Origin: Paludibacteraceae bacterium
Lineage (GTDB): Bacteria > Bacteroidota > Bacteroidia > Bacteroidales > Paludibacteraceae
NCBI GenBank assembly: GCA_017448985.1
Contig: JAFSKL010000010.1
Span: forward strand, 20,250 to 84,249
Reading direction: 5' to 3'
DNA: 64,000 nucleotides
The notes under the pieces were generated by a model. The model was not told the DNA's origin and did no database searches. It saw only the letters and a program-made list of their open reading frames with translations. Below, piece after piece: positions 3,067 to 50,520 of this stretch (within the stretch, counting starts at the first letter, position 1; every line of letters starts with the position of its first letter). The position numbers were made by a program, and so were the translations under genes.

Positions 3067-4248
3067 ATGGATATCGTTGAGCGCTTTCTCAAGTATGTCT
3101 CGTTTTGCACAACGAGCGACGAGAATACAAATATGACGCCTTCCACGCCCGGCCAGATGGAGTTCGCGCGTTTCCTTGCCGATGAACTCAAATCGATAGG
3201 TTTGAAGGACGTTTCCCTCGATTCCAACGGGTATATCATGGCCACCTTGCCGGCCAACGACCAACGACAAATGACCAATGGCCAACGGCCTGTCATCGGC
3301 TTCATCGCCCATATGGACACCTCGCCGGATGTGAGCGGTCGCCATGTCAAACCGAGTATCGTCAAGGCCGAAGAGCGCGATTTCATCGATGCGCGTTATG
3401 CGGGGCAGGAGGTCATCGTCACCGACCAGACCACTCTCCTTGGAGCCGACGACAAAGCCGGTATAGCCGAGATCGTCACGGCCATGGAGTACCTTGTGCA
3501 GCATCCGGAGATCGAGCACGGCAAAGTGCGTATCGGCTTCACACCGGACGAGGAGATAGGTCAGGGAGCCGACCATTTTGATGTGAAGGCTTTCGGCTGT
3601 GACTTCGCCTACACCATGGACGGAGGAGCAATTGGTGAGTTGGAGTTCGAGAACTTCAACGCGGCTTCGTGTAAGATTCATGTTCACGGAGTGAATGTTC
3701 ACCCCGGGTCAGCGTATCACAAGATGCAGAACTCGATGCGTATAGCTTACCAGTTAGCCGTTATGCTACCTCGCTGGGAGACGCCGGAGCACACACAGGG
3801 ATACGAAGGTTTCTACCACCTCATCGGCATGAACGGCACCGTGGAAGAGACCACGCTCAGCTATATCATTCGTGACCATGACAAAGCGCGTTTCGAGAGC
3901 CGCAAACGGGAACTGGAGCACCTCGTCCGCAAGGTGAATCGTGAGTACGGAGACGGAACGGCGGAGATCGAGATACGCGATCAATATTATAACATGCGCG
4001 AGAAGATAGAGCCCGTCATGCACATCATCGAACTCGCCAAGAGTGCGATGGAATCGGTGGAAGTGACACCTGTCATCAAGCCTATTCGTGGCGGAACGGA
4101 TGGCGCAAGGCTCTCCTTCGAGGGACTACCCTGCCCCAATATCTTTGCCGGAGGCGAAAACTTCCACAGCCGATACGAGTATCTCCCGATTCCATCGATG
4201 AAAAAAGCCATGGAAGTGATCCTCCAAATCGTTCAAATGGCTAAATGA
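3067..4248 (+). CDS. pepT: Peptidase T (tripeptide aminopeptidase, M20B)
   Basis: 393 aa. N-terminus [21 protein letters not shown], plus IAHMDTSPD and [11 protein letters not shown] metal-ligand motifs typical of PepT. Confidence 0.9.
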
Positions 4249-4290: not shown

Positions 4291-5380
4291 CAAGACAACT
4301 CCGTTTACGGATATTCACATTGCGTTAGGCGCAAAAATGGCAGAGTTTGCCGGTTTCAATATGCCTATTCAGTACCCTACTGGCATCAATCAGGAGCACA
4401 TGATCGTTCGCGAAGGTGTCGGCGTGTTTGATGTCAGCCACATGGGCGAGTTCTGGGTGAAAGGCGAGAAAGCGCTGGACTTCCTGCAGTATATCACCAC
4501 CAACGACCTGTCGGTCATACCGGCAGGCAAGGCGCAGTACACCTGTATGCCCAACGGCAAAGGCGGTATCGTGGATGATCTGATCATCTATAAATACTCC
4601 ACCACCAAGTACCTCATGGTAGTCAATGCCGGCAATATAGACAAGGACTGGGCGTGGGTCAACCAAATTAAAAATGAAAAATTAAAAATTAAAAATTGGG
4701 GAGATCTCTCTTTGGACAATGCCTCGGACCGTTACGGCCAATTGGCGGTGCAGGGACCGAAGGCGGTGGAACTGCTTCAACTGCTCACCGACCTGGACCT
4801 CAAGTCCATCGACTATTATGCGTTCCGCGAGTGGAGTTTTGCGGGCGTACCGGGTGTCATCCTGTCGAACACCGGTTATACCGGTGCCGGAGGCTTCGAG
4901 CTCTATTTCCCTGCCGACAAAGGGATACAGATCTGGAACGCGCTCTTCGAAGTGGGCAAGCCGTTTGGCCTGGCTCCTATCGGTCTCGGTGCCCGTGACA
5001 GCCTGCGTTTGGAGAAATGGTACTGTCTCTACGGCCACGATATCGACGATACCACCTCACCGCTCGAAGCAGGTCTCGGATGGATCACCAAGCTCGATGC
5101 CAAGGAGTTCATCGACCGCGATTTCCTCAAACAGCAGAAAGCGGAAGGCGTCCAACGCAAACTGGTACACTTCGAGTGCCAGGAGCGTGCTATCCCGCGG
5201 AACGGCTACGACATATGCGATGAATCCGGCAATAATATAGGTCATGTCACCTCCGGCATCATGCTGCCCAACACCAAAACGGGCATCGGAATGGGCTATG
5301 TGCAAACACCCTTTGCCAAGAAAGAGAACATCATCTATATCCGCATCCGCGAGAAACTGATTCCCGCCAAAATTGTCTAA
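4265..5380 (+). CDS. gcvT: Glycine cleavage system aminomethyltransferase T
   Basis: [28 protein letters not shown] and FDVSHMGEF motifs. An alternative start is ATG 4280, because the first 5 codons come from the AAATGGT-type repeat. In-frame heptamer array at 4665-4699. Confidence 0.9.
4665..4699. repeat. Heptamer array x5 inside gcvT
   Basis: AAATTAA AAATGAA AAATTAA AAATTAA AAATTGG. Encodes [11 protein letters not shown]. Confidence 0.9.
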
Positions 5381-8343: not shown

Positions 8344-8478
8344 ATGGAAGCAGCATTAAAACAACCTGTTCTGCATAGTGCAGGAACTATCTCTGAAGAG
8401 AAATGGGATAGCCTTCATACCATCGAAGAACTAGATGCATCTTTGAAAAGTATTATCCATAATCATTTTCATGGATGA
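8344..8478 (+). CDS. Small hypothetical protein (possible antitoxin partner)
   Basis: 44 codons starting just after a consensus promoter (8279-8310). Its stop overlaps the next ATG by 4 nt (ATGA). No recognisable domain. Confidence 0.3.
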   Translation: MEAALKQPVLHSAGTISEEKWDSLHTIEELDASLKSIIHNHFHG

Positions 8479-8795
8479 AAGAATTAGAAGTACGTATAGA
8501 TGATGCCGTATTCTTTGATTTGACTGAATTTTATAAATTCAGCCTCAAGAAACATCCTACCTTAGATGAAGCGACAGTTCTAAAGAAAGAGCAACGTCTT
8601 ATTCGTTCTTTGAAGGCTTTGGGCAAATATGCTCTAACTGACCACACCGAGATACGGCATATACCTTGGATACGAAAGGGATATAAGGACTATTATGCGG
8701 ATGGTTTCCATTTTGGTTACAAAATAGAAGCATTGCCTTCTGGTGAAAATGTCGTTGTGGTTTACGAAGCCCTTCACGAATTGCTATTTGATTAA
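8475..8795 (+). CDS. Hypothetical 106-aa protein, weakly RelE/ParE-toxin-like in size and layout
   Basis: Translationally coupled to the upstream small ORF, in an AT-rich context. The ending ...VVVVYEALHELLFD resembles ParE/RelE C-termini only loosely. Confidence 0.45.
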   Translation: MKELEVRIDDAVFFDLTEFYKFSLKKHPTLDEATVLKKEQRLIRSLKALGKYALTDHTEIRHIPWIRKGYKDYYADGFHFGYKIEALPSGENVVVVYEALHELLFD

Positions 8796-10981: not shown

Positions 10982-12793
10982 ATGAAGAATATACGGAATT
11001 TTTGTATCATTGCGCATATAGACCACGGCAAGAGTACGCTGGCGGACAGGATGTTAGAGTTGACGGGTACCGTCGATGTTCGCAGCATGGAAGCACAGGT
11101 GCTCGACGACATGGACCTGGAGAAAGAACGGGGCATCACGATAAAGAGCCATGCGATACAGATGAATTATAAGTATAGGGGTGACGGGTTACCGGTTACG
11201 GGTGACGGGATGTTCACTCTTAATCTCATCGATACTCCGGGGCATGTGGATTTCAGTTATGAAGTGAGCCGGAGTATAGCGGCTTGCGAGGGAGCGGTGT
11301 TAGTTGTAGATGCGACGCAAGGCGTTCAGGCGCAGACGATATCGAACCTGTACATGGCCATCGAGCACGACCTCGAGATCATTCCCGTGATCAACAAATG
11401 CGACATGGACAATGCGATGCCGGAGCGTGTGGAGGACGAGATAATAGACCTGTTGGGTTGCAAGCGCGAGGAGATACTGCGTTGTTCGGCGAAGACGGGC
11501 GAGGGCGTGACGGAGATATTAGATGCCATCGTGGAGCGTATCCCGGCACCGGTGGGCGACCCCGACGCACCGCTGCAATGCCTCGTCTTCGACTCTGTAT
11601 TCAACTCGTTCCGCGGTATCATAGCCTACTTCAAAGTGGTGAACGGGACGATGCACACGGGTGACCGCGTGCGGTTTGTGAACACGGGCAAGGAGTACGA
11701 CGCGGACGAGATAGGTATCCTCAAATTAGACATGAGCCCTCGCAAGGAGATAAGCGCCGGCAATGTGGGGTACATCATCTCGGGCATCAAGACCTCGACC
11801 GAGGTCAAAGTGGGCGACACGATCACGCATGTGGCGCGACCGTGCGAGGCGGCGATAGACGGTTTCGAAGAAGCCAAGCCGATGGTGTTCGCGGGCGTCT
11901 ATCCGATAGAGACGGAAGACTACGAGGACCTGCGGGCATCGTTAGAAAAGCTGCAGCTGAACGACGCGAGTCTGACGTTCCAGCCGGAGAGTTCGATGGC
12001 GTTGGGCTTCGGTTTCCGCTGCGGGTTCCTCGGGTTACTGCACATGGAGATAGTGCAGGAGCGTCTGGACCGCGAGTTCGACATGGACGTTATCACCACG
12101 GTGCCGAATGTGTCGTACAATGTCTATACCAAAGACGGCAACATGGTGGAGGTACACAACCCCGCGGGAATGCCGGACCTGACGGAGATAGACCGCATTG
12201 AGGAGCCGTACATCCGCGCGAGCGTCATCACCGTGGCCGATTACATAGGGCCGATCATGACGCTGTGTTTGGGCAAGCGCGGCGAACTGGTCAAGCAGGA
12301 GTACATCAGCGGTAACCGTATGGAGCTGCTGTTCGACATGCCGTTAGGCGAGATAGTGATCGATTTCTACGACAAGCTCAAGTCGATCAGCAAGGGCTAC
12401 GCGTCGTTCGACTGGCACATGAACGGCTTCCGTCCGTCCAACCTCGTCAAGCTGGACATCCTGCTGAACGGCGAGCAAGTGGACGCACTCTCTACCCTCA
12501 CCCATCGCGACAATGCTACGGACTTCGGCCGGCGCATGTGCGAGAAACTCAAAGAGTTGCTACCTCGCCAACAGTTCGACATAGCGATACAGGCGGCGAT
12601 AGGTGCGAAGATCATTGCGCGGGAGACCGTGAAGCAGGTGCGCAAGGATGTGTTGGCCAAGTGTTACGGCGGTGATGTGAGCCGTAAGCGCAAGCTGCTC
12701 GAGAAGCAGAAACGCGGCAAGAAGCGGATGAAACAAATAGGCAATGTGGAAGTGCCGCAAAAAGCCTTCCTCGCTGTTTTGAAACTGGATTAG
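10982..12793 (+). CDS. lepA: Translation elongation factor 4
   Basis: [33 protein letters not shown], and C-terminal [23 protein letters not shown]. In-frame heptamer array at 11179-11209. Confidence 0.95.
11179..11209. repeat. Heptamer array x4 inside lepA
   Basis: GGGTGAC GGGTTAC CGGTTAC GGGTGAC GGG. Encodes [10 protein letters not shown]. Confidence 0.85.
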
Positions 12794-12802
12794 TTTCAAA
12801 AC

Positions 12803-12830
12803 AATGAATAATGATTAATGAATAATGAAT
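12803..12830. repeat. AATGAAT-family heptamer array x4 (left flank of the four-helix-bundle gene)
   Basis: AATGAAT AATGATT AATGAAT AATGAAT. Confidence 0.9.
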
Positions 12831-12847
12831 ATCTCGCTGAATGTAAC

Positions 12848-13237
12848 ATGGAAGAAACTAAAATATACAATTTAGGCATATTAGAAGATAAAACATATTC
12901 GTTTGCGCTACGAATCATCAAAGCACATAAATATCTAACAGACAAGAATGAATATATTCTCTCAAAACAACTCCTTCGTTCAGGAACTTCCATTGGGGCA
13001 AACTGTCGAGAGGCCACATTCGCTCAAAGTAAGCAAGACTTTGTTAACAAATTAAGTATAGCTTTAAAAGAGACAAACGAAAGTATCTATTGGATAGAAC
13101 TATTGCATGATTCCGGATTTATTACCGATGATAGCTTTGATTCCATTCATGCTGATGGCACAGAAATATTAAAACTATTAATCGCTATCATTAAAACATC
13201 AAAAAGTAATATCCAAAAAATTAAAGATATTCATTAA
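12848..13237 (+). CDS. Four-helix-bundle protein (23S rRNA intervening-sequence protein family)
   Basis: SIGANCREATFAQSKQDFVNKLSIALKETNESIYWIELL is the family signature. Very AT-rich. Flanked by inverted heptamer arrays. The longer start at 12818 lies inside the repeat. Confidence 0.8.
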   Translation: MEETKIYNLGILEDKTYSFALRIIKAHKYLTDKNEYILSKQLLRSGTSIGANCREATFAQSKQDFVNKLSIALKETNESIYWIELLHDSGFITDDSFDSIHADGTEILKLLIAIIKTSKSNIQKIKDIH

Positions 13238-13266
13238 TCATTATTAATTATTAATTATTCATTAAT
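13229..13266. repeat. Inverted AATGAAT-family array x5 (right flank of the four-helix-bundle gene)
   Basis: ATTCATT AATCATT ATTAATT ATTAATT ATTCATT AAT. This is the reverse complement of the left-flank family. Confidence 0.9.
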
Positions 13267-14574
13267 ATGTTAGAACATTTGATTCCGGCGTGGATGCTAA
13301 TCCCGTTTGTAGTGATGCTGCTATGCATCGCAGTGCTTCCGCTGATTCCTCATGTGGGCGAGTGGTGGGAGCATAATGTACACAAGCTGTATGTTTCGCT
13401 GATCCTCGGCGTGCCCGTAGGTTTCTGGCTGTGCGCACACGGCATGAGTCACGAGCTGATTCACCAGATGATCTTCGACTATGTGCCTTTCATCCTGCTG
13501 CTGATGGCGCTGTTTGTAACGACCGGCGGTATCTGTATCCGAGGTGACTTGAAAGCGACACCGCAGACTAACACGATCATCTTAGCTATCGGCTGGGTGC
13601 TGGCTTCGTTCATGGGAACGACCGGTGCAGCGATGCTGCTCATCCGTCTGCTGTTGGCAACCATCTCGCAACGCAAGTACAAAGTGCACACGGTCCTTTT
13701 CTTCATCGCCATCGTGGCTAACTGCGGCGGTCTGCTGTCTCCGCTCGGCGATCCTCCTTTGTTCCTGCTGTTCCAGAAAGGTACGCCGTTCATGTGGTGG
13801 CTTCAGAACATGCTTCCCGAATGGGCGCTGACAGGAGCTCTGCTTCTCGGTATCTACTTTGTGATCGATGTCTATTTCTACAAGAAAGAGCCGGTGGAGA
13901 ACATCATGGCCGATGTGCGCGAGAGCACCAAGATGCAGGCGACGGGTCTGATCAATATCTTCTGGCTGCTGTGCGTGGTGGCGAGCACGATGTTCATCAA
14001 CTCGACTTATATCCCTGCGATGGGTGGCGAACATGCACCATGGTACCTCAAACTGCTGCGCGAGTGGGTCTTCATCGCCATCATCGCCGGTTCGTGGCTG
14101 ACGACGAAGAAGGAAGTGCGGGTGAAGAACAACTACAGCTGGACGCCTATCCTCGAAGTAGCATGTGTCTTCTTAGGAATTTTCGCCACGATGACTCCTG
14201 CTCTGATGTTCCTGCAGCAGAACCCGCTGCCCGTCACGGCTCCGTGGCAGTTCGTCTATTGTACGGGTGCCCTCTCGGCGTTCCTGGACAATGCGCCTAC
14301 GGCCATGGTCTTCCATGCTACGGCTACCACTATCCCGTTAGCTGAAGGCGTAGAAGCGGTGGCAGGTATCGCACCGGAGTTCATGAAGGCTATCTCGATG
14401 GGTGCCGTGTTCTTCGGAGCGCTCACCTATATCGGTAACGGACCTAACTTCATGGTCAAGTCCATCGCCGAGCAGGAAGGAATCGATATGCCGTCGTTCT
14501 TCGGCTATATGATTAAGTTCAGCTTGATCATTCTCCTGCCTGTTTATATCATCGTTCAAATAATATTTATTTGA
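13267..14574 (+). CDS. Ion transporter of the ArsB/NhaD (citrate transporter-like) permease superfamily
   Basis: 435 aa, polytopic. GGLLSPLGDPPLFL and FLDNAPTA motifs are typical of NhaD-type Na+/H+ antiporters. Confidence 0.7.
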   Translation: MLEHLIPAWMLIPFVVMLLCIAVLPLIPHVGEWWEHNVHKLYVSLILGVPVGFWLCAHGMSHELIHQMIFDYVPFILLLMALFVTTGGICIRGDLKATPQTNTIILAIGWVLASFMGTTGAAMLLIRLLLATISQRKYKVHTVLFFIAIVANCGGLLSPLGDPPLFLLFQKGTPFMWWLQNMLPEWALTGALLLGIYFVIDVYFYKKEPVENIMADVRESTKMQATGLINIFWLLCVVASTMFINSTYIPAMGGEHAPWYLKLLREWVFIAIIAGSWLTTKKEVRVKNNYSWTPILEVACVFLGIFATMTPALMFLQQNPLPVTAPWQFVYCTGALSAFLDNAPTAMVFHATATTIPLAEGVEAVAGIAPEFMKAISMGAVFFGALTYIGNGPNFMVKSIAEQEGIDMPSFFGYMIKFSLIILLPVYIIVQIIFI

Positions 14575-14578
14575 AAAA

Positions 14579-14606
14579 GGACAATGGAAAATGGATAATG
14601 TACAAT
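14579..14606. repeat. Heptamer array x4 (left arm)
   Basis: GGACAAT GGAAAAT GGATAAT GTACAAT. Confidence 0.9.
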
Positions 14607-14613
14607 TAATATT

Positions 14614-14641
14614 TCATTTTCAATTTTCAATTTTCAATTTG
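14614..14641. repeat. Heptamer array x4 in opposite orientation (right arm)
   Basis: TCATTTT CAATTTT CAATTTT CAATTTG. Confidence 0.9.
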
Positions 14642-14642
14642 T

Positions 14643-15293
14643 ATGAGTTTCATAGATAACATCATCACGTGGTACTCGGCGCATATGAGCTATGCGTCGA
14701 TTACTGCTTTGATGGCTGTGGAAAGTTCGTTCATTCCTTTCCCGAGCGAAGTGGTGATTCCTCCTGCAGCGTTCGTAGCGGGTCAGCCGGAGAGCGTGCT
14801 GTGCACAACGGGCAACTACCCTATTGATGTGCTGCTGATCGTGCTCTTCGGCACGCTTGGTGCGATAATAGGCGCCGTGATCAACTACGGCCTGAGTGTA
14901 TGGCTCGGACGAATCATCATCTATAAGTTCGCGGATTCACGCCTTGGGCACCTGTGCCTGCTCTCGAGCGAGAAGATAGAGAAAGCGGAGGCGTACTTCC
15001 GTGAGAAAGGCAATGTATCGACCTTCATCGGACGATTCATCCCGGGAATCCGGCAGCTCATATCTATCCCTGCGGGCCTGAGCCGTATGAACTTCGGCGC
15101 GTTCCTCTGGTGGACCTTCCTCGGAGCGTTCATCTGGAATTGCATCCTGGCGGCGCTGGGCTACTTAGCTGCCGGACAAATGGACCTGATAAAAGAATAT
15201 AGCCACGAACTATCCGTAGCTATACTCGTCATTCTCGGCTTGGCAATCGTGTTCTTCGTTGTCAAGCGCTTGCTAAAAGCTAAAAAAGATTAG
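14643..15293 (+). CDS. DedA family membrane protein
   Basis: ESSFIPFPSEVVIPPA and FIGRFIPGIRQLISIPAG DedA/SNARE-associated motifs. Confidence 0.8.
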   Translation: MSFIDNIITWYSAHMSYASITALMAVESSFIPFPSEVVIPPAAFVAGQPESVLCTTGNYPIDVLLIVLFGTLGAIIGAVINYGLSVWLGRIIIYKFADSRLGHLCLLSSEKIEKAEAYFREKGNVSTFIGRFIPGIRQLISIPAGLSRMNFGAFLWWTFLGAFIWNCILAALGYLAAGQMDLIKEYSHELSVAILVILGLAIVFFVVKRLLKAKKD

Positions 15294-16240
15294 GCTTTGA
15301 GCCAGGCGATGATTGCTTTGCGTTTGTCGATCACTTCGGCGAGGAGGCATCCAGCCACCCAACCGAGCAGGAAGAGCAACGCTACACACTGACGACGACC
15401 GTTCACGGGTTTGGGGTCTGCCACAAAGTGGTTCTCCAGCACTACGGGAGCGGTCGCTAATTGTAAGCGGTAGTCGCCTTGCTGCAGGTGTTGCTGCTGC
15501 TTGTATATCTCCTCGAGGAAGAGATGGATTCGACGGTCACCGTAGAAATTAACGCCGTTCCCGCTGTAAGCAGCAGGCTGAACGGGCACTGTTCCTGCAA
15601 AATAGTACGCGCTGGTGAGGCTGTCGAGCTTGAGCGCCTGCGCATGGTTGAAAGCGACTTCGGCCTCCAGGTTGCGGCGATAGGTGCCGAACGACTGCTG
15701 CAATGCCTCGTTGGCATTGAGGAAATCGAGCAAGGCCTGCTCCACCTCCGGCAGTTTTTTCAAGTCACGCGACTTGATGCGGAACTGCAGGCACAGACGG
15801 TCCTGCATCTGTACATTGAGCGTGTCCTTGGGCGAGGACTTGCGCTTGAAATCGACAAAGTCCGCCACGCCGTCATGGCGACAGTCCACTACGCGGAAAG
15901 TCTGAAAAGCCTGTACCTGATGCTCCTTGATGAACGGCAGTATAGCGGCATCGTCAGGTATCGAACGACTTGAACGGAGCGGCGCAAAAGCCTGCTCGAA
16001 CTGCGGCAGCGAAGCACCGTTGATGAAAGCCACCGCGTTCATCTTGAAGGTAATGTTCGCTTCACGCGTATGGTAGAGAGCCACTGCCACCGCCAAGAAA
16101 ACAAGGGCCAACACCAGCCACCAGTAGCGCCACGAGAGGCGTAACATATGCGCCAACAGGCGCCATAAAGCGGCACAGCCGCGACCTATAGCACGGCCAC
16201 ACACCACGCAAAGGTCCCAAAAATTCATTTCTCGTTCCAT
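15290..16240 (-). CDS. Hypothetical membrane protein (N- and C-terminal TM helices)
   Basis: 316-aa ORF immediately downstream of ftsZ. Topology is TM helix, large soluble region, TM helix. No domain recognised. Its stop overlaps the dedA stop convergently. Confidence 0.55.
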   Translation of the reverse strand: MEREMNFWDLCVVCGRAIGRGCAALWRLLAHMLRLSWRYWWLVLALVFLAVAVALYHTREANITFKMNAVAFINGASLPQFEQAFAPLRSSRSIPDDAAILPFIKEHQVQAFQTFRVVDCRHDGVADFVDFKRKSSPKDTLNVQMQDRLCLQFRIKSRDLKKLPEVEQALLDFLNANEALQQSFGTYRRNLEAEVAFNHAQALKLDSLTSAYYFAGTVPVQPAAYSGNGVNFYGDRRIHLFLEEIYKQQQHLQQGDYRLQLATAPVVLENHFVADPKPVNGRRQCVALLFLLGWVAGCLLAEVIDKRKAIIAWLKA

Positions 16241-16243
16241 TTT

Positions 16244-16271
16244 AATGAATAATTAATAATGAATAATGAAT
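16244..16271. repeat. AATGAAT-family array x4
   Basis: AATGAAT AATTAAT AATGAAT AATGAAT. Nearly identical to 12803-12830, including the following ATCT. Confidence 0.9.
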
Positions 16272-16307
16272 ATCTTTTTATGTGAATATGCTTTCGTCTC
16301 ACGAGAT

Positions 16308-16335
16308 AATCATTAATCATTAACCATTGATAATT
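16308..16335. repeat. Inverted AATGAAT-family array x4, overlapping the ftsZ stop
   Basis: AATCATT AATCATT AACCATT GATAATT. Confidence 0.85.
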
Positions 16336-17591: not shown

Positions 17592-17627
17592 ATTCAATTT
17601 TCCATTTTTCCATTTTCCATTTTCCTA
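17592..17627. repeat. Heptamer array x5 filling the ftsA-ftsZ spacer
   Basis: ATTCAAT TTTCCAT TTTTCCAT TTTCCAT TTTCCTA. The last unit holds the ftsA stop. Confidence 0.85.
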
Positions 17628-18908
17628 CTCGCTGTCAATAAACATATCGAGTGTCGATTCTTTCACTCGGTCGAGGAACCCGGGCTTGCGCACCAGTTGG
17701 TTCTTATGATTATCGCGGTAGTCCTGTCCGAGCAGTATCGTTCCGACGAGCGCGGTGTACTGCGGGGAGAGGTATCGGTCCTCGGTGTCTCGGTGCAGGA
17801 GCAGGTTGTGTGCGCCGTACTGCACATGAACGGGCGTGAGGCTCTGGATATAATCCTCCATTCCTTGCAGCATGCTGCCTCCGCCGGTGATATAGAGCGT
17901 CGAGATGCGGCTCTCCACCTTACGCAGTTCGTCCATCAGCGGCGCGAGGATCTCTTTCATTTTGAGCTCTATCGCTTCCGCCAGCTCCATAGTGGAGATG
18001 ATCATGTCTCCGCCTATCTCGGGGCCGGCAGGTACCCGCAGCCGCAGATTCTTCTGCACCAAGTCGGGCGAAGCGCAGCCGAACTTCTTCTTCAGCACCT
18101 CTGCCGTGGCAAAGCTCATACCTTGCTGCTCGAGCATTCGCGTGATGTGATAGCCGCCTTTTGGCACCACTTTGTTGATGAGGTACTGGCCGCTCTTGTA
18201 GGCGGTGAGACTCGTGGTCTGTGCGCCGAAGTCGAGCACAGCACAGCCGTTCATCAGCACATGGTTTCCGTCGCAGGTAGCGAACGTGGACAGCAGGCAC
18301 TCGGGTCGCACGAACGCGTGCTCAATGCTACGCGCCGCTTGCGAGAATGATTTCTGCAGCATGGTATCGATCACTTTGCGGCCGTAGAAAGCGATGTAAT
18401 GAGCCTCGACCAGCGCCGCGCGTTGTTCAGGAGAAGGCATCTCGTCCTGCTCCACGCCGTCTAACTTGAAGTACGACGGCACCAGCCCCAAAACGGCTAC
18501 ATCGGGATTGCGCATCTCGATTTTCTGCTTGCACTCGAGTTCCATCTCGTCAAGGAGGGTCTGACTGATCTCTTTCTTTCGCGCCTGGTCCCGCCTGGAA
18601 TGGACCGCTACGATCTGCATCGACTGTCCGCCGACGGAGATAAACGCCGTAGGCAGTTCGTCCAAACCGATGCGGTTCGCTAACAGTTTGAGTACTTCGG
18701 CTATCACATAGCCGGCACTGCTGGACTGCGTGATGATACCTTGCTCCACGCATAAGTTGCCTAATTTCTGCGGCCGTTCCTCCACACCAAGAATGCGGAA
18801 CAAATCCGGCGCAATGCGTTGCGCGGCCATAGCCCGCACGCTGTCACTGCCCAGGTCCAATGCCACCAACGGGAGTGAGTCTGCTGTTTGTGTTTGTCTT
18901 CTTGCCAT
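17625..18908 (-). CDS. ftsA: Cell division protein FtsA
   Basis: Actin-like ATPase: VALDLGSDSVRAM and ITGGGSMLQG motifs. Position is between ftsQ and ftsZ. Confidence 0.9.
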   Translation of the reverse strand: MARRQTQTADSLPLVALDLGSDSVRAMAAQRIAPDLFRILGVEERPQKLGNLCVEQGIITQSSSAGYVIAEVLKLLANRIGLDELPTAFISVGGQSMQIVAVHSRRDQARKKEISQTLLDEMELECKQKIEMRNPDVAVLGLVPSYFKLDGVEQDEMPSPEQRAALVEAHYIAFYGRKVIDTMLQKSFSQAARSIEHAFVRPECLLSTFATCDGNHVLMNGCAVLDFGAQTTSLTAYKSGQYLINKVVPKGGYHITRMLEQQGMSFATAEVLKKKFGCASPDLVQKNLRLRVPAGPEIGGDMIISTMELAEAIELKMKEILAPLMDELRKVESRISTLYITGGGSMLQGMEDYIQSLTPVHVQYGAHNLLLHRDTEDRYLSPQYTALVGTILLGQDYRDNHKNQLVRKPGFLDRVKESTLDMFIDSE

Positions 18909-19691: not shown

Positions 19692-19719
19692 TTCAGTATT
19701 CAGTATTCAGCATTCAGAC
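19692..19719. repeat. Heptamer array x4 spanning the murC stop and the murC-ftsQ spacer
   Basis: TTCAGTA TTCAGTA TTCAGCA TTCAGAC. Encodes the MurC tail SLNAEY-stop. Confidence 0.9.
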
Positions 19720-21100
19720 TTTTAGTTATCTCGGGCACGAGGCGGTCGATGTCGCCGGCGCCTACAGTCAGTATGACCACGGGCTGCTGACTAAGCGCTA
19801 TGCGTCTCTTCAGCTCCGGCACCAGGTCCTGCTTCTCCACTAATTTCCCATTGTCCATTGTCCATTGTCCATTCGCAAGCAGTATCTCGCTGGTGACACC
19901 CGGTATCGGCTCTTCCCGCGCCGGATAGATAGGCAGCAAGAGGCACTCGTCCAGCGTTGCCAACACACGCGTGAATCCTTCTTTGAAGTCGCGTGTACGC
20001 GTGTAGAGGTGTGGTTGGAAGACTCCTATCAGTCGTCGTTCGGGGAACAGCTTGCGGATCGAATCGATGGCCGTGGCTATCTCTTGCGGGTGATGGGCAT
20101 AATCGTCTATGTACACGATCTTCGGCGTGTGCACATGGATGTTAAACCGGCGCTGGACACCCTTAAAAGTTGAGAGTTGAGAGTTGAAAGTGGAAAGATT
20201 CTTTCCCACCAGATAAGCCACCGCCATGGCTGCCACTGCATTCTCTATGTTCACCCATACGGGCACGCCGAGACGGATGTCTTTCACCGTCTCACGCGGT
20301 GTGACGAAGTCAAACACAATCGTTCCTTCACCCACCCGGATGTTCGTGGCATAGAAATCCGGGCCATTTTCCATTTTCCCTTGTCCATTGTCCATTCCGT
20401 AAGTATAGCACTTCACTCCCGGCTGCAGCCTGGGCACCAGCGCAATGCCGTGCTTCATCACCAGCGCACCGGTGATGAGACTCGTATAATGGGCAAACGC
20501 TTCGCGATAGGCTTCCGGCGTGCCGTAGATATCCAAATGGTCTGGATCGACGGCCGTGACCACGGAGATATACGGTGTCAGCTGATGGAACGAGCGGTCG
20601 TACTCGTCGGCCTCCACCACCACAAACGGACTCTCAGGCTCAATGAGCACATTCGTGCCGTAGTTCATGCTGATGCCGCCGAGGAACGCGTTGACGGGCT
20701 GCAACAGATGAGCAATCATCGTGCTCGTCGTTGTCTTGCCGTGTGTCCCCGCCACGCAGAGCGCCTGCTTCCGGCGAGTCACATCACCCAACACCTCGGC
20801 ACGCTTCTTGATCTGAAATCCGTGCTCGCGAAAATACCGATACAAAAGACTATCCTCCGGCACAGCCGGTGTACGGACCACAAGCGTATTGTCTGAATGA
20901 AAAATGGACAATGGACAATGGAAAATGGAGGGATCGTCCTCATAGGTGATCTCAATGCCCTCCGCCTCCAGCTCCCCGGTCAGTTCCGACGGCGTGCGGT
21001 CATAACCCGACACATGATAGCCCTGACGCTGAAAATACCGCGCCAAGGCACTCATTCCGATGCCACCGATGCCCAAGAAAAAGATATTTTTCGCCTTCAT
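19700..21100 (-). CDS. murC: UDP-N-acetylmuramate--L-alanine ligase
   Basis: MKAKNIFFLGIGGIGMSALA and GTHGKTTTSTM motifs. Start set at ATG 21100 because the -7 box (21116-21123) lies in the longer ORF. Carries four in-frame heptamer arrays. Confidence 0.92.
   Translation of the reverse strand: MKAKNIFFLGIGGIGMSALARYFQRQGYHVSGYDRTPSELTGELEAEGIEITYEDDPSIFHCPLSIFHSDNTLVVRTPAVPEDSLLYRYFREHGFQIKKRAEVLGDVTRRKQALCVAGTHGKTTTSTMIAHLLQPVNAFLGGISMNYGTNVLIEPESPFVVVEADEYDRSFHQLTPYISVVTAVDPDHLDIYGTPEAYREAFAHYTSLITGALVMKHGIALVPRLQPGVKCYTYGMDNGQGKMENGPDFYATNIRVGEGTIVFDFVTPRETVKDIRLGVPVWVNIENAVAAMAVAYLVGKNLSTFNSQLSTFKGVQRRFNIHVHTPKIVYIDDYAHHPQEIATAIDSIRKLFPERRLIGVFQPHLYTRTRDFKEGFTRVLATLDECLLLPIYPAREEPIPGVTSEILLANGQWTMDNGKLVEKQDLVPELKRRIALSQQPVVILTVGAGDIDRLVPEITKSLNAEY
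19844..19871. repeat. Heptamer array x4 inside murC
   Basis: TTTCCCA TTGTCCA TTGTCCA TTGTCCA. Encodes NGQWTMDNGK. Confidence 0.9.
20169..20196. repeat. Heptamer array x4 inside murC
   Basis: GTTGAGA GTTGAGA GTTGAAA GTGGAAA. Encodes LSTFNSQLST. Confidence 0.9.
20366..20397. repeat. Heptamer array x4-5 inside murC
   Basis: ATTTTCC ATTTTCC CTTGTCC ATTGTCC ATTCC. Encodes MDNGQGKMENG. Confidence 0.9.
20899..20926. repeat. Heptamer array x4 inside murC, opposite orientation
   Basis: GAAAAAT GGACAAT GGACAAT GGAAAAT. Encodes FHCPLSIFH on the minus strand. Confidence 0.9.
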
Positions 21101-21115
21101 TTCACAAAAATCGCG

Positions 21116-21146
21116 CAAAGTTACAAAAAAAATTGCATATATCAAA
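21116..21146 (-). promoter_or_regulatory. murC-ftsQAZ promoter (half of a divergent cassette)
   Basis: Minus strand TAACTTTG with TTTG about 20 nt upstream. Confidence 0.6.
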
Positions 21147-24866: not shown

Positions 24867-26156
24867 ATGTTTTTGTATTTTCTATTGATACGAATCGCGG
24901 CGCTGTTCGGGCACAAGAAAGCCCGTGCGTTGGTGGAAGGCCAGAAGTCAGCATTCAGCTTTGAGCCGTCAGTATTCAGCGGCTGCATATGGATTCATGC
25001 GGCTTCGGCAGGCGAGTTCGAGCAGTCGAGGACGCTGATTGAGAGGATAAAGGACGCTTCGCTACAGGACGGCGCAAGCGCCTACAAAGAAAAGGTTGTT
25101 GTCACATTCTTTAGTCCGTCGGGATACAAGGCACATAAGGGGAACGAATTGTTGGACGGCGTGCTGTACCTGCCCTTTGCCACGCGGCGCAATGCGCGCA
25201 AGTTCATCGAGGCCCTGCAACCGAAAATGGCCATCTTCGTCAAATACGAGTTCTGGCCCGCCTATATACGCGAACTGAAGAAACGCGATATCCCCATTTA
25301 CAGCATCTCGGCTATCTTCCGTCCGAAGCAGTATTTCTTCCGGTGGTGGGGCAAAGGTCAACTGCGCATACTGCGTGCTTTCACGCATATCTTCGTGCAG
25401 GACGAGGCCTCGCGACGGCTGTTGGCGGAGCACGGCGTGCATAACGCAAGCGTGGCAGGAGACACGCGATTTGACAGAGTCAAACAGACCGCTTGCGCTG
25501 TAAGACCGGCTTCGCCTGTAGGATTGCAGCCCATAGCAGAGTTTGCGGAAGGGTGCAAGAGGGTGTTGGTGGCAGGAAGCACATGGCCGGAGGATGAGGC
25601 GCTATTAGCGCAATTAAAAATTAAAAATGAAGAATTAAAAATTATTCTTGTGCCGCACGAGATAAACGAGGCACATCTGCATTTCATTTTCAATCTGTTC
25701 AAGGGACGGATGGTGAAGTACAGTTCAATTGAAAATGGACAAAGGAAAATGGAAAATGGGATTGTTAGCCGGCGGAACATACTGCGGCACGCGGAGGTGA
25801 TGGTGGTGGATACGATCGGTCTGTTGAGTTCGATCTATCAGTTCGGGCAGGTGGCTTATGTAGGCGGCGGCTTCGGCGAAGGGATTCACAACACCATCGA
25901 AGCGGCGGTGTATGGTGTGCCGGTGATTTTCGGGCCTAACTACCAACGATTTCGCGAGGCACAAGGACTGATTGATGCCGGTGCAGGCAAGAGCGTGCGC
26001 AAATACAATGAGTTTGAAGAGGCGGTGGAGACAGCTTTTGCGCAGCATGAAGACTTAGGCGCCAAAGCGGCGGAGTATGTGGAGAGCGAGTTGGGAGCGA
26101 CTGCAAAAATCTGCGAGCAGATTTTTGCAAATGGAAAATGGAAAATGGAAAATTGA
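24867..26156 (+). CDS. waaA: 3-deoxy-D-manno-octulosonic acid (Kdo) transferase
   Basis: IWIHAASAGEFEQSRTLIERI and a C-terminal GGGFGEGIHNTIEAAVYGVPVIFGP motif. Start set downstream of promoter 24801-24832. Three heptamer arrays, the last of which provides the C-terminus and stop. Confidence 0.85.
   Translation: MFLYFLLIRIAALFGHKKARALVEGQKSAFSFEPSVFSGCIWIHAASAGEFEQSRTLIERIKDASLQDGASAYKEKVVVTFFSPSGYKAHKGNELLDGVLYLPFATRRNARKFIEALQPKMAIFVKYEFWPAYIRELKKRDIPIYSISAIFRPKQYFFRWWGKGQLRILRAFTHIFVQDEASRRLLAEHGVHNASVAGDTRFDRVKQTACAVRPASPVGLQPIAEFAEGCKRVLVAGSTWPEDEALLAQLKIKNEELKIILVPHEINEAHLHFIFNLFKGRMVKYSSIENGQRKMENGIVSRRNILRHAEVMVVDTIGLLSSIYQFGQVAYVGGGFGEGIHNTIEAAVYGVPVIFGPNYQRFREAQGLIDAGAGKSVRKYNEFEEAVETAFAQHEDLGAKAAEYVESELGATAKICEQIFANGKWKMEN
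25612..25646. repeat. Heptamer array x5 inside waaA
   Basis: AATTAAA AATTAAA AATGAAG AATTAAA AATTATT. Encodes LKIKNEELKII. Confidence 0.9.
25723..25760. repeat. Heptamer array x4-5 inside waaA
   Basis: TGAAAAT GGACAAA GGAAAAT GGAAAAT GGG. Encodes IENGQRKMENG. Confidence 0.85.
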
Positions 26157-26175
26157 AAATTGAAAATTTAGAATT
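26126..26175. repeat. Heptamer array x7 forming the waaA C-terminus, its stop and the whole waaA-hisS spacer
   Basis: GGAAAAT x3, TGAAAAT x2, TTAGAAT. The stop TGA arises at the first TGAAAAT unit. The hisS ATG follows 1 nt after the array. Confidence 0.95.
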
Positions 26176-27495
26176 ATGGCACAGAAACCAAGTATACCCA
26201 AAGGGACGCGCGATTTCGGGCAAGTGGAAATGGCTCGGCGCAATTATATCTTTGACACCATCAAAGGGGTGTTTCAGTTGTACGGCTTTCAGCAGATCGA
26301 GACGCCTGCGATGGAGAACCTGAGCACGCTGATGGGCAAGTACGGCGAGGAAGGCGACAAGTTACTTTTCCGTATCCAGAACAGCGGCGAGAAAGCGAAC
26401 CTGACGCCGGAGAAAGGTCTGCGTTATGACCTGACCGTTCCGTTTGCGCGCTATGTGGTGCAGCACCGCGAGGAGATCAGTTTTCCCTTCAAGCGCTTCC
26501 AGATTCAGCCCGTTTGGCGTGCCGACCGACCGCAGAAAGGCCGTTACCGCGAATTCTACCAGTGCGATGTGGATGTGATCGGTTCCAATTCGCTGGTCGG
26601 AGAGTTGGAGCTGGTGCAGATAGTAGAGGAGGTGTACCGCCGTTTGGGCATCAATGTGTGTCTGCACATCAACAATCGCAAGATTTTAGCAGGTATAGCC
26701 GAAGTGATCGGTGAGCCCGACAAGATCATCGACATCACCGTAGCCATCGACAAACTGGACAAGATAGGCGTCGATGCCGTGAATGCGGAATTGGCGGAAC
26801 GGGGACTGAGCGAGAAAGCTACTGAGGCACTGCAGCCGATATTGAATCAGGAGTCAGGAATCAAGATTCAAGACAAAATAGTTCAATTGAAGTCGTTCTT
26901 GGCGACGAGCGAAGTGGGACTGAAAGGCATTGAGGAACTGGAGACCTTGTTCGGACTGATAGAGGCGACAAGTGTGAAGTTGAACATTGAATTGGACCTG
27001 TGCCTTGCGCGCGGACTCAATTATTACACGGGCGCGATATTCGAGGTCAAGGCCTTGGACGCACAGATCGGTTCGATCACCGGTGGCGGTCGTTACGACA
27101 ACTTGACGGGTATCTTCGGCTTGCCGGAAGTGTCGGGCGTCGGCATCTCGTTCGGTGCTGACCGCATCTACGATGTGCTGACCGAGTTGGACCTGTTCCC
27201 CAAAGAGCTGCAATCGGCCACACAAGTGCTCTTTGCCGCGTTCGGACAGGACGAGTTGCACTATGCGCTGCGTTGGGCCAACGGGCTGCGGGCAGCAGGG
27301 ATAGCCGTGGAGGTCTATCCCGAAGCGACGAAGATGAAGAAGCAGATGGGTTATGCCGACGCCAAGCAGATTCCGTTCGTGGCCATCGTAGGCGGCGACG
27401 AGATGGCGCAAGGCAAAGTGATGCTCAAAAATATGAGTTCCGGCGAACAAAAACTCGTCGGACCCGACGAACTGATAGAAATGGCAAAATCTTAA
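26176..27495 (+). CDS. hisS: Histidine--tRNA ligase
   Basis: [15 protein letters not shown]..., [25 protein letters not shown] and GGGRYDNL class II motifs. In-frame heptamer array at 26844-26885. Confidence 0.95.
26844..26885. repeat. Degenerate heptamer array x6 inside hisS
   Basis: GAATCAG GAGTCAG GAATCAA GATTCAA GACAAAA TAGTTCA. Encodes [13 protein letters not shown]. Confidence 0.8.
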
Positions 27496-27604
27496 TAATC
27501 GTACATTTTTTCAGGTAGCCTTTAACCACGGTTTACCCACGGTTTAACCACGGTATTACCCCTTGTAGTGCATAGAGGGGCAAAATCTTAAAAATAGTAA
27601 ACTT
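27487..27604 (+). repeat. ~118-bp dispersed intergenic element, copy A (hisS / DUF1599 spacer)
   Basis: Shares three blocks with the reverse complement of 50521-50637: 24/24, about 45/45 and 25/25 identical nt, separated by two short divergent patches. Contains the 11-mer array TTAACCACGGT TTACCCACGGT TTAACCACGGT (27522-27554). Confidence 0.9.
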
Positions 27605-27611
27605 TTGAATC

Positions 27612-28148
27612 ATGGCAGATACGAACAAACAATTTGATTTGGTAACGGCCAAGTGCCGGCAGATTTTTGTGGACAAGATGCAGGACTACGGAGCTTCGTG
27701 GCGTATCTTCCGCCTGCACGGTATCACCGACCAGCTCTACATCAAAGCCTGCAACATCCGCCAACTGCAAACGACGGGCGTCAGTCTGGTGGGCGACGAC
27801 ATAGAGGGCAATCTGCGCGCGATCATCAACTACGGCATCACCGCCATCATCCAGGAGCGGAACGGCTACGCCGATTCGATAGACATGAGCAACGAGGAGG
27901 CGATGCGGCACTACGACGAGGTGCTGCACGAGGCCAAAGAGCTGATGGTGCGCAAGAACCATGACTACGGCGAGGCTTGGCGCGAGATGAGCAAAGAGGG
28001 CATCGTCGATATGATACTCGCCAAGATAATTCGCATCAAGACCATCATTGCCAACGGCGGCAAGACGATTGCGTCCGAAGGCATCGAAGGCAACTACTTC
28101 GATATCATCAACTACGCCATTTTCGATCTTATACATTATGAGAATTGA
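27612..28148 (+). CDS. DUF1599 domain protein
   Basis: KCRQIFVDKMQDYGASWRIFR and KNHDYGEAWREM match my recollection of DUF1599. Its usual Bacteroidota neighbour (BT_3928-like) follows. Confidence 0.7.
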   Translation: MADTNKQFDLVTAKCRQIFVDKMQDYGASWRIFRLHGITDQLYIKACNIRQLQTTGVSLVGDDIEGNLRAIINYGITAIIQERNGYADSIDMSNEEAMRHYDEVLHEAKELMVRKNHDYGEAWREMSKEGIVDMILAKIIRIKTIIANGGKTIASEGIEGNYFDIINYAIFDLIHYEN

Positions 28149-28201
28149 CAATGGAAAATGGAAAATGGAAAATTGACAATGGAAAATGGAAAATGTAAAA
28201 T
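28146..28201. repeat. Heptamer array x8 forming the whole spacer, from the DUF1599 stop to the next ATG
   Basis: TGACAAT GGAAAAT x3 TGACAAT GGAAAAT x2 GTAAAAT. The first unit holds the TGA stop and the last holds ATG 28200. Confidence 0.95.
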
Positions 28202-29321
28202 GAAAGAGAGAACCGTCAAACATATCCTCGGAAGCGTAGCCCGCACGTTGCTGGCACTGACCTTCCTGTTCTCGGGTTTTGTGAAAGCCGTGGATCCGTT
28301 AGGTACCGTCTATAAGATAGAGGACTACCTGAAGGCCTTCGGCGGATTCTTCACCGACCTGCTGCCCTTAGCCGGCACCGCAGCGGTGCTGCTTATAGCG
28401 GTAGAGTTCGTGCTCGGATTCTGCATGCTGTTCAATGTGCGGACCAACTGGACGAGCTGGCTGTCGTTAGTGTTTTACCTGGTGATGACGCCGTTGACGC
28501 TGTGGATAGCGCTGACCAATCCCGTGACCGACTGCGGCTGTTTCGGCGATGCGCTGGTGTTGACCAATTGGCAGACCTTCTGGAAGAACGTCATCCTGCT
28601 GAGTCTCGTGGTCGTACTGCTGATCTGCCTCAAGGCCGTTCCGCCGCTGTTCAGCTGGTGGATGGAGCTCGTGATAACGCTCGTCGGATTGGGCATAGCC
28701 GGCGGCATAATGGGCTATTCCTATACCCACCTGCCTCCGATGGACTTCCGGCCGTACAAAGTGGGCAACCATATCCCCACCCTGATGGAGATACCTGATG
28801 ACGCAGAACCGGACATCTACGAGACGACGCTCATCTATGCCAAAGACGGCGTAGAGCAGGAGTTCACTCTGGCCGACTACCCCAAAGGCGACAGCACATG
28901 GACCTTCGTCGATCAGAAATCCGTGCTCATCAAGAAAGGCTACGAGCCGCCGATTCACGACTTTGAGATCATGACGCTCGATTTCTACGACATCACCTAC
29001 GACATCCTTGAAGCCGACGAGCCAATCACGCTCGTCACGATGTACGACCTGAACAAGACCGACCGCAAGCAGATAGACAAAGTGCTGCAGCTGATGCGAG
29101 ACTGCCGGCGGGACGACAAGATACTCTATATCCTGACCGGAAGCGGCGAGGACGACATCTTTGCTTTCGCCGACGAGATAGGCCTGGACGAAGAGGTGGC
29201 GGAGCATGTGTTCTGCACCATCGATCCCGTGACGCTCAAGACTATTGTCAGGGCTAATCCGGGCATGTTCGTCGTGCAGGACGGTGTGATCATCGAGAAA
29301 CATAATTTTCGACAATTGTAG
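28200..29321 (+). CDS. BT_3928-like membrane protein (DoxX-like N-terminus, thioredoxin-fold-like C-terminus)
   Basis: Four N-terminal TM helices with FSGFVKAVDP and TDCGCFGD motifs. Start set at ATG 28200, because the 14 upstream codons of the track ORF are pure heptamer repeat. Confidence 0.65.
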   Translation: MKERTVKHILGSVARTLLALTFLFSGFVKAVDPLGTVYKIEDYLKAFGGFFTDLLPLAGTAAVLLIAVEFVLGFCMLFNVRTNWTSWLSLVFYLVMTPLTLWIALTNPVTDCGCFGDALVLTNWQTFWKNVILLSLVVVLLICLKAVPPLFSWWMELVITLVGLGIAGGIMGYSYTHLPPMDFRPYKVGNHIPTLMEIPDDAEPDIYETTLIYAKDGVEQEFTLADYPKGDSTWTFVDQKSVLIKKGYEPPIHDFEIMTLDFYDITYDILEADEPITLVTMYDLNKTDRKQIDKVLQLMRDCRRDDKILYILTGSGEDDIFAFADEIGLDEEVAEHVFCTIDPVTLKTIVRANPGMFVVQDGVIIEKHNFRQL

Positions 29322-29345
29322 ATTGTAGATTGTAAATTGTAAATT
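29311..29345. repeat. Heptamer array x5 upstream of tpiA
   Basis: GACAATT GTAGATT GTAGATT GTAAATT GTAAATT. Includes the TAG stop of the upstream gene. Confidence 0.9.
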
Positions 29346-29354
29346 TTATATACT

Positions 29355-30145: not shown

Positions 30146-30152
30146 GAAAACT

Positions 30153-50519: not shown

Positions 50520-50520
50520 A

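Follow-up and report, generated by a model that had tools for sequence, protein, structure and literature searches.

The subject of this study is a small gene for a four-helix-bundle (4HB) protein that lies between lepA and a transporter gene in a 64-kb stretch of DNA from a Paludibacteraceae bacterium (contig JAFSKL010000010.1), here called the window. We propose that the gene and its flanks may well form a hairpin-bounded cassette, akin to the intervening sequences (IVS) of 23S rRNA, inserted into an operon spacer. Upstream, lepA (10982–12793; domains GTP_EFTU and LepA_C) ends with a TAG stop codon at 12791–12793. Downstream, the CitMHS_2 transporter gene (13267–14574) begins with an ATG at 13267. 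The 473-nt spacer between them contains a single open reading frame (ORF), the 4HB gene, encoded on the + strand at 12848–13237 (ATG at 12848, TAA at 13235–13237). An alternative in-frame ATG at 12818, within the left of two flanking arrays, would yield 139 rather than 129 residues. The original prediction, made from the letters of the window alone, had described a very AT-rich 4HB gene at this position, and this was borne out: the gene encodes 129 residues at a GC content of 0.32, compared with 0.53–0.56 for the neighboring genes and 52% for the window overall. At third codon positions the GC content (GC3) is 0.26, against 0.75 in lepA and 0.70 in the transporter gene; the low GC3 of the 4HB gene is unameliorated.

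Two tandem heptamer arrays in opposite orientation bracket the gene, placing it as cargo in the loop between them. The left arm (12803–12835, + strand) reads AATGAAT AATGATT AATGAAT AATGAAT plus ATATC; its four heptamers span 12803–12830, are followed by ATATCT, and a conserved end motif, ATCTCGC, comes next at 12832–12838. A short leader, GCTGAATGTAAC (12836–12847, + strand), runs from the stem to the start codon. The right arm (13225–13266, + strand) consists of AGATAT followed by ATTCATT AATCATT ATTAATT ATTAATT ATTCATT and AAT. It contains the 4HB stop codon, and its heptamers with the terminal AAT (13229–13266) abut the transporter ATG. Direct reading therefore bears out the predicted AATGAAT-type array on the left and its reverse-complement family on the right. 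The arms form an inverted repeat of 35 nt at 86% (12800–12834 with 13225–13259) or, in an alternative register, of 25 nt at 92%. For a 21-mer of the arms, pairing had been claimed at about 19 of 21 positions; the pairing itself is confirmed, and the count is 20 of 21. The lepA stop codon lies 7–9 nt before the stem and the transporter start 0–3 nt after it. At the left border of the cassette-bearing spacer, the inverted-repeat search and direct reading also revealed a perfect 11-bp hairpin, GTTTTGAAACT/AGTTTCAAAAC with the loop GGATT (12776–12802, + strand), which encloses the lepA stop codon.

The 4HB protein matches PF05635 (E=2e-25, 89.5 bits, cut-off 33.8) and TIGR02436, 'four helix bundle protein' (E=1.3e-30, 105.8 bits, cut-off 24), in both cases above the curated cut-offs. 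It also matches the uncharacterized PDB entry 2rld (E=3e-36), which has five chains. The family comprises 10,635 representatives at 50% identity (E≤1e-3), and hmmsearch of all ORFs found no further 4HB paralogue in the window or in 80 related loci described below. No HUH/Y1 or DDE transposase was recognized in the protein, PF05635 being the only family matched, and PADLOC assigned the gene to no defence-system family. Compared with copies at the orthologous site, dN/dS is 0.02–0.04 with dS saturated; the protein is under strong purifying selection. It is not basic, having a pI of 6.4 and 17 lysines and arginines versus 18 aspartates and glutamates.

Avd, the accessory protein of diversity-generating retroelements (DGRs), is also a PF05635 member with the same fold. 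This raises the possibility that the gene is a leftover Avd accessory gene and the repeats a degenerate template repeat (TR) and variable repeat (VR). The shared Pfam family is what speaks for such a remnant. The protein, however, is acidic to neutral and stands alone in an operon spacer with no reverse transcriptase or TR/VR, and no reverse transcriptase or target gene lies within ±6 kb, where the neighbors are AMP-binding, acyltransferase, LepA, CitMHS_2, VTT, FtsZ, FtsA and Mur ligase genes. Moreover, the repeats are 7-nt tandem arrays and not a template/variable pair of ~100 nt. A search of a phage collection for DGR-type Avd controls returned two matches only, both with bacterial housekeeping neighbors and without arrays, neither of them a DGR; they count as exceptions to the array pattern. 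A DGR origin is already disfavored, and we consider it extremely improbable.

Folding predicts that the arms pair. The arm–arm RNA duplex has a predicted energy of −25.2 kcal/mol, compared with −11.9±2.8 kcal/mol for 1000 dinucleotide shuffles of the right arm, none of which was as low. Single arms are unstructured (−1.3 kcal/mol for the left and −1.5 kcal/mol for the right). In a 501-nt transcript, the mean probability that a left-array base pairs with the right arm is 0.84, and the stem is found in both the minimum free energy (MFE) and the centroid folds. By its inverted arms, its duplex energy and these folds, the locus has a predicted terminal stem like that of an IVS. The sequence of the arms is also far from generic within the window. 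Allowing up to two mismatches, the 14-mer AATGAATAATGAAT occurs 11 times versus 0.55 expected (0/100 shuffles), and all matches lie at the 4HB locus or at 16244–16321.

Tandem heptamers as such are common here. In addition to the arms, the window contains tandem heptamer arrays that have no link to a 4HB gene, about 20 in number and with eight or more types of unit; the 64 kb hold a single 4HB gene. Most of these arrays occupy short spacers that separate co-oriented genes, and terminate beside a start codon. Given these arrays, arrays as such are not special to the 4HB gene, and the question becomes whether the two flanking arrays belong to it. What is special to the 4HB locus is the matched unit family and the inverted orientation.

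To address generality, we considered 41 4HB loci from five phyla. The sample includes 17 loci from one-genome-per-species contigs, scanned with one protein (Bacteroidales, Flavobacteriaceae, Chitinophagaceae, Fluviicola, Polaribacter, Carboxylicivirga and Cytophagales), and 18 plasmid-borne loci (Nostoc, Dolichospermum, Planktothrix, Euhalothece, Gloeocapsa, Pseudanabaena, Aulosira, Anabaena, Bernardetia, Chondrinema, Treponema, Chlorohelix and Monoglobus). Flanking arrays of period 7 or 14 are present at 39 of the 41 loci, and at all 18 of the plasmid-borne ones, which represent Cyanobacteriota, Bacteroidota, Spirochaetota, Chloroflexota and Bacillota. When periods from 4 to 14 were compared, the best self-match period was 7 or 14 in 80 of 82 flanks. 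Unit sequences are lineage-specific, and the arms of each locus are mutually complementary: the inverted-repeat score of a left arm with its own partner has a median of 17, versus 8 across loci (permutation p≤5e-5), and the own partner ranked first among 39 in 20 loci. At 21 Bacteroidota 4HB loci the median score is 13, versus 7 for 119 control genes from the same loci (Mann–Whitney p=2e-7). Strict heptamer arrays occur at 2.9 per kb within 200 nt of 4HB genes and at 0.07 per kb elsewhere in the same loci. The upstream neighbor is co-oriented in 30 of 35 loci. The suggestion that homologues would generally be flanked by inverted arrays thus holds in both the Bacteroidota and the plasmid samples.

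The units themselves differ widely. In Nostoc, (AATTCGT)4 precedes the ORF and (ACGAATT)4 follows it, or (AATTCGC)4 and (GCGAATT)4 do so. Other lineages have GGAAGTC/GACTTCC, AAATTCA/TGAATTT, AATGGTT/AACCATT, AATCCCC and AATCGTA each with its complement, and 18 copies of TTAGTGA opposite TCACTAA. The arms of the Planktothrix cassette consist of AATCCCC (=GGGGATT), and those of the Chondrinema and Euhalothece cassettes of TAACTGA-like units. Outside the phylum of the window, cassettes often lie inside defence or housekeeping operons (L137, L143, L146, L138, L136, L147, L145, L131). Such sites are found between drmD and pglX (DISARM/BREX), between hsdS and hsdR, and next to cas1/cas2; a site between DUF1156 and Swt1-HEPN genes is used in both Gloeocapsa and Chlorohelix. 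Further cassettes lie between an RND adaptor and permease and upstream of recF.

These comparisons bear on another explanation, namely that a small gene is flanked by generic spacer arrays by default and that their inversion is an accident of A/T-rich low complexity. The many arrays in the window that abut start codons without a 4HB gene are consistent with it, as are related lepA–transporter spacers that hold other arrays (CTAGAGAGA, CGTCATAA and others) but no 4HB gene. Coincidence does not explain why complementarity exceeds both the cross-locus and the neighboring-gene controls, or why the window has AATGAAT-family units at just two loci, each an inverted pair. In addition, genomes without widespread arrays show a ~40-fold concentration of arrays at 4HB genes, and G+C-containing units such as AATTCGC/GCGAATT and GGAAGTC/GACTTCC pair perfectly. 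Coincidence is therefore already disfavored, and we judge it very unlikely.

The same termini recur at other sites. Homologues 78–85% identical to the 4HB protein occupy three other operon spacers in rumen and gut Bacteroidales: between bactofilin and DUF1015 genes, between the POR alpha and TPP subunit genes of a 2-oxoacid:ferredoxin oxidoreductase, and between yidD and tRNA_m1G_MT. In each case the gene is co-oriented with both neighbors. Cassettes at these sites share with the window the termini (AATGAWT)n-ATCTCGC on the left and AGATATTCATT(n) on the right. In an alignment of six related elements, including ORF-less ones, ATCTC is invariant, and in a second alignment the right ends align as AAAGATATTCATT(ATTCATT)n. 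At all four rumen sites, the left arm begins 0–10 nt after the upstream stop codon and the right arm ends 0–8 nt before the downstream start.

Relatives that lack the ORF also exist. One lies in the window at 16242–16321 on the − strand, with the structure (AATGATT)n-ATCTCGTGA, ~25 nt of filler and AAAGATATTCATTATTCATTATTAATTATTCATTAAA; it ends at the ATG (16240) of gene 15290–16240 and folds as a hairpin of −16.6 kcal/mol. Others are found in L003 (4012–4122), L047 (4300–4382) and L112 (4890–4986). Such modules are present in zero, one or at least two tandem copies upstream of the 4HB gene (L101–L110, L155–L157), and their number differs among strains whose 4HB protein is identical. Dispersed gene-less derivatives that keep both termini, as known from REPINs and from MITEs (miniature inverted-repeat transposable elements), are thus a property of this family. 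The spacer between the transporter gene and the VTT gene (14575–14642) is a further inverted array pair, (AATGGAA)n and (TTTTCAA)n, which folds as a hairpin of −14.3 kcal/mol ending at the ATG of the VTT gene. In related strains (L003 at 3929–4122, L047, L112) this spacer holds an ORF-less AATGAAT-type hairpin, either instead or additionally.

The junction of lepA with the transporter gene was then compared in relatives. A metagenome scan with the transporter protein yielded 80 loci at 73–93% identity, none of which carries the 4HB gene; lepA is directly upstream in 45 of them, separated by 1–153 nt. The empty spacers are related neither to one another nor to the filled one, so that no joint can be defined, and neither an empty-site footprint nor a target-site duplication was found among them. 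Some consist of one base (TAA T ATG), and others contain different tandem arrays or G+C-rich hairpins. Tandem arrays of 9-mers (CTAGAGAGA, CTAGACAGA, ACTAGATTA) occupy the spacer in L024, L026, L027, L032, L039, L043, L081 and L083. These 9-mers resemble repeated copies of the last codons of lepA with its stop (CTA GAT TAA), a hint that the local gene end can seed an array.

The 4HB gene is present at the lepA junction in four lineages, always together with the arrays: the window with its strain-level copies (L001–L003), L004 (90% protein identity), L005 (84%) and L111–L120 (85%). The four lineages are scattered in the host tree, and in the transporter tree each of them (window, L004, L005, L111–L114) has an empty nearest neighbor. 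TTTCAAAAC after the lepA stop codon and the synonymous codons GTT TTG AAA CT are common to the window, L005 and L111; empty sister loci have neither at the lepA end. In the empty locus L021 another hairpin, CTCGCGGT/ACCGCGAG, spans the same stop codon. Remnants were found in three loci. The spacer of L044 (2848–3000) retains a 3' stump of a 4HB ORF, terminating in LNEIIALLTTIIKTTKLKYNV and a stop codon, after which comes a TTTTCCA/TTTTCAA array at the start of the transporter gene; this is a decayed cassette with a different arm family. In L049 and L099 an AATCATT array alone remains. The pattern of filled and empty sites together with these remnants indicates that the gene and its arrays appear and disappear jointly, as one block, and that this block decays. 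The idea of a cargo gene in a hairpin-bounded cassette survives the comparison with relatives, and is supported by block presence and absence, by several sites with common termini and by the ORF-less derivatives.

Sliding-window identity in lepA and the transporter gene revealed no tract common to the filled lineages, and recent allelic transfer via flanking homology was rejected on this ground as the cause of the patchy distribution. The saturated dS, the low dN/dS and the lack of a recombination tract indicate that the cassettes are old and the protein strongly selected.

Comparison of orthologous sites shows that the two arms change jointly and stay complementary. At the lepA site, the window has AATGAAT units and L005 has AATTAAA-type units; the left arm of L005, AATTAAAAATTAATAATTAAAAAT, faces its exact reverse complement (24/24). 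At the yidD site, the arms are AATGAAT/ATTCATT in L159 and AATAACA/AAATAAT versus TTATTTA/TTATTGA in L151, whose protein is 83% identical to that of the window. In Nostoc, the (AATTCGT)4 and the (AATTCGC)4 arms are each perfectly complementary over 33–35 nt.

Such covariation could also arise at the DNA level. Single-stranded or supercoiled DNA could then fold at the arms into hairpins or cruciforms, which would serve a host recombinase in insertion or excision, as with integron attC sites, repetitive extragenic palindromic (REP) sequences and their RAYT, or IS200/IS605 ends. In a variant, the arms act as homology pads and the ORF moves by gene conversion into pre-existing ORF-less hairpins. 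The arms would owe their identity to copying from one to the other rather than to selection on an RNA stem, and both roles may coexist. The perfect Nostoc arms, in which the unit has changed in every repeat of both arms, look homogenized, and they are fitted equally well by this explanation and by an RNA role. ORF-less hairpins with the same termini are possible landing pads or remnants, one subfamily uses at least four insertion sites, and module or unit copy number varies between strains that encode an identical protein. The G·U signature of RNA selection, discussed below, is not seen. On the other hand, a recombinase gene is linked to none of ~40 loci and integrases are adjacent in only two, and no joint is defined by a target-site duplication or a conserved empty-site sequence. 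A co-oriented upstream gene is expected of an expressed RNA element, not of a purely DNA-level one. Nor is there a sign of inversion: the ORF is co-oriented with its operon in all strain-level copies (L001–L003, L101–L130, L151–L162), a weak test as these are assemblies rather than reads. We consider a DNA-level element rather unlikely.

A different role for the arrays would be to bind the protein. An oligomeric 4HB protein could bind its own leader and that of the downstream gene, in the manner of TRAP or CsrA, and regulate translation; the 7-nt period would then be dictated by the protein, with the inverted arrangement as a secondary feature. A period conserved across five phyla while the sequence varies suggests a physical ruler. 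The arrays directly adjoin start codons, conservation of the protein is strong, and homologues crystallize as pentamers (2rld; S23p of Xanthomonas, cited in PMC4990558). For TAACTGA arrays, MacGregor 2015 proposed a post-transcriptional regulator (PMC4679880). Against binding, the protein lacks the basic character of its nucleic-acid-binding relative Avd, and proteins that are ~50% and 84% identical sit beside different units, so that sequence-specific recognition would have to re-evolve constantly. The model also leaves unexplained why the downstream array is reverse-complementary rather than direct. We regard it as improbable.

Based on these observations, we favor the IVS-like, hairpin-bounded gene cassette in an operon spacer as the best explanation as a whole, with a probability only slightly above one half (about 0.55). 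The unit would consist of the left heptamer array, a short leader, the 4HB ORF and the reverse-complement heptamer array, with the two arrays acting as terminal inverted repeats of the element and not as independent leaders of the neighboring genes. The cassette would have no promoter of its own and be transcribed from the upstream gene, lepA. The Bacteroidota-type promoter motif TAnnTTTG is absent from either spacer around the 4HB gene, the upstream gene is nearly always co-oriented and the arms adjoin the neighbors, all of which point to transcription from the host operon. The one match, TAGCTTTG at 13132–13139 on the + strand, lies within the 4HB ORF ~130 nt upstream of the transporter ATG; one such match is no more than chance would give, and it has no clear −33 TTTG. 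A promoter belonging to the 4HB gene was rejected for these reasons.

In the transcript, the arms would pair into an A-U-rich stem of ~30 bp, so that the 4HB message is looped out and the lepA stop codon comes to lie beside the transporter start. RNase III would process the double-stranded stem, as it does in 23S rRNA IVS with the same gene family, releasing a separate 4HB mRNA and freeing the A/U-rich leader of the downstream gene. We infer this cleavage at the lepA–transporter stem by analogy with one studied relative, the 23S IVS of Coxiella. Over evolution, the cassette would be gained and lost as a block, occupy different operon spacers and decay to ORF-less hairpins, while its arrays expand and contract by slippage with the arms remaining complementary. 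Pairing of the arms in vivo, movement of the element and the role of the protein are likewise inferred.

Several observations weigh against this interpretation, in addition to the unlinked arrays of the window. The whole 501-nt region folds little better than shuffles (z=−1.6), and the stem is A-U rich and interrupted (12+6+10 bp), so that RNase III would act on it less well than on the Coxiella stem. Among the stem mismatches at 29 4HB loci, 24 are sense-strand G·T, 30 are A·C and 89 are other; sense-strand G·U is not in excess, and selection on RNA rather than DNA is therefore not demonstrated. Arrays are missing from two 4HB loci (L149, L150). In L009 and L011 the first array on the downstream side is direct rather than inverted, and in L121–L130 a complete short hairpin precedes the ORF, giving the left arm a partner nearer than the arm after the ORF. 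No recombinase or transposase is linked to the cassette. Any movement is old or rare, and the patchy distribution could be entirely due to loss; repeated loss and repeated gain fit the junction data alike.

The two arms also differ in a systematic way. At the 29 loci, G in the left arm facing A in the right arm is the mismatch seen most often in the stems: each unit of the upstream arm retains ATG, and the downstream arm has AAT where CAT would pair. This pattern indicates that the two arms are not under identical constraints.

Comparison with known systems helps to place the proposed cassette. The 23S IVS of Coxiella burnetii, Leptospira, Xanthomonas and Brucella have the same protein family in the loop and a terminal stem; they too are insertions in a transcribed unit that do not stop transcription, and have long been suspected of being selfish or mobile (PMC4990558). 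The Coxiella IVS has a 28-bp terminal stem in which RNase III cuts have been mapped and an S23p ORF in the loop, with two to three tandem GACAGAT heptamers, variable in number among strains, upstream of the ORF (PMC4990558). The family background invoked by the original prediction, stem-loops within 23S rRNA cut by RNase III, is thus correct and, given the Coxiella heptamers, stronger than was claimed. IVS are located in helix 25 or 45 of 23S rRNA, whereas the cassette occupies a protein-coding operon spacer, and an Rfam search of the window found no rRNA and no other RNA family. The cassette would therefore work like a 23S IVS but is not one. Its stem is itself built from heptamer arrays. Purifying selection on its ORF is strong; the ORF of Coxiella, by contrast, is reported to be decaying and probably untranslated. 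Cleavage by RNase III is shown for the IVS and only predicted for the cassette.

The arms also resemble the heptamer repeats known as TAACTGA, GGGAATC/GGGGATT and cyanobacterial short tandemly repeated repetitive (STRR) sequences: intergenic tandem 7-mers, often ending at a start codon, of strain-variable length and in the same phyla. TAACTGA arrays are described in Beggiatoaceae, Cyanobacteria and Bacteroidetes (PMC4679880), and GGGAATC/GGGGATT arrays in Xanthomonas and Nostoc, with ~70 inverted pairs in convergent orientation in Xanthomonas (PMC4692102). With a period of 7 on both sides and a copy number that differs between related loci, the arms have the features of long simple sequence repeats (LSSR) and of the STRR and TAACTGA types. 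The difference is the gene: the searched passages of PMC4679880 and PMC4692102 describe arrays without an associated gene, and the terms 'four helix' and '23S' are absent from them.

Other systems share single features. Like REP/REPIN–RAYT systems and MITEs, the cassette has a gene between inverted short repeats that also occur gene-less as intergenic hairpins. Its cargo, however, has no HUH/Y1 or DDE motif and is not evidently a transposase, and its repeats are fixed-period, lineage-specific tandem arrays, not one conserved palindrome. RNase III sites between cistrons occur in the early mRNA of phage T7 and in phage lambda, where they are local hairpins of 20–30 bp without a gene in the loop. 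By this likeness, a long imperfect stem in a polycistronic message could separate cistrons without ending transcription.

A broader version of the proposal is that such cassettes are a widespread and so far unrecognized class of autonomous selfish element, an 'IVS outside rRNA', and the source of heptamer repeats. The arrays would be the target of the 4HB oligomer in trans, much as REPINs are served by RAYT and a polymerase by Avd. The oligomer would set the period of 7 and would maintain and spread ORF-bearing and ORF-less hairpins, including in-frame coding ones. The heptamer repeats of Cyanobacteria, Bacteroidota, Xanthomonas, Beggiatoaceae and Coxiella would be explained in this way. We offer this extension tentatively and think it doubtful.

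An earlier description of a general link between 4HB genes and flanking heptamer arrays was not found in the literature searched, a scope that excludes subscription-only literature. Two puzzles have stood apart since ~1990, the nature of the 23S-IVS/S23p 4HB genes and the abundance of tandem heptamers in some phyla. The evidence joins them in one object, a gene in a putative hairpin with heptamer arrays as its arms. This object occurs in mRNA operons from five or more phyla, often within defence or essential operons that it does not disrupt. IVS biology would thereby become accessible outside rRNA, and heptamer-array biology would gain a concrete candidate factor and structure. For annotation, such small AT-rich genes with their flanks should be treated as insertions and not as parts of the host operon. 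Should the stem prove to be an RNase III site, nature would here offer a way of placing a gene in an operon without polar effects.

The remaining arrays of the window have the units AATGGAA/TTTTCCA, TTTTCAA, AATGGAC, ATTGTAG, ATTGGTG, AGTTGAA, TTCAGTA and others. Examples lie at 518–561, 1507–1545, 4664–4703, 14609–14647, 17597–17628, 26124–26180, 28139–28210, 29313–29358, 32024–32069, 41050–41086, 51885–51923 and 63772–63815. Short tandem arrays of other units or periods (CTAGTCWA-type, CCGGTAT-type, ATCGTAA) lie in operon spacers at 30108–30152, 34069–34101, 43228–43281 and 45266–45288. Two spacers of 116 nt, 27496–27611 and 50520–50635, are near reverse complements of each other and contain a tandem array with a unit of ~11 nt (AACCACGGTTT); the pair is a dispersed repeat of another period. 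Two further small AT-rich ORFs, 8475–8795 (106 aa) and 62685–63008 (107 aa), have a GC content of 0.37–0.38 and no Pfam match. Both follow spacers carrying TAnnTTTG motifs, and the first lies beside a lower-GC acyltransferase gene.

Heptamer arrays are also found in frame within a coding sequence. The murC ORF (UDP-N-acetylmuramate–L-alanine ligase; 19700–21145, − strand) contains arrays at 19842–19881, 20163–20201, 20364–20399 and 20895–20934, and the array peptides are ANGQWTMDNGK, GMDNGQGKMENG, STFNSQLSTF and SIFHCPLSIFH. Compared with solved MurC structures, DNGQGKM is a clean insertion of seven residues, equal to three heptamers, indicating that arrays colonize essential coding sequence as well, in multiples of 21 nt.

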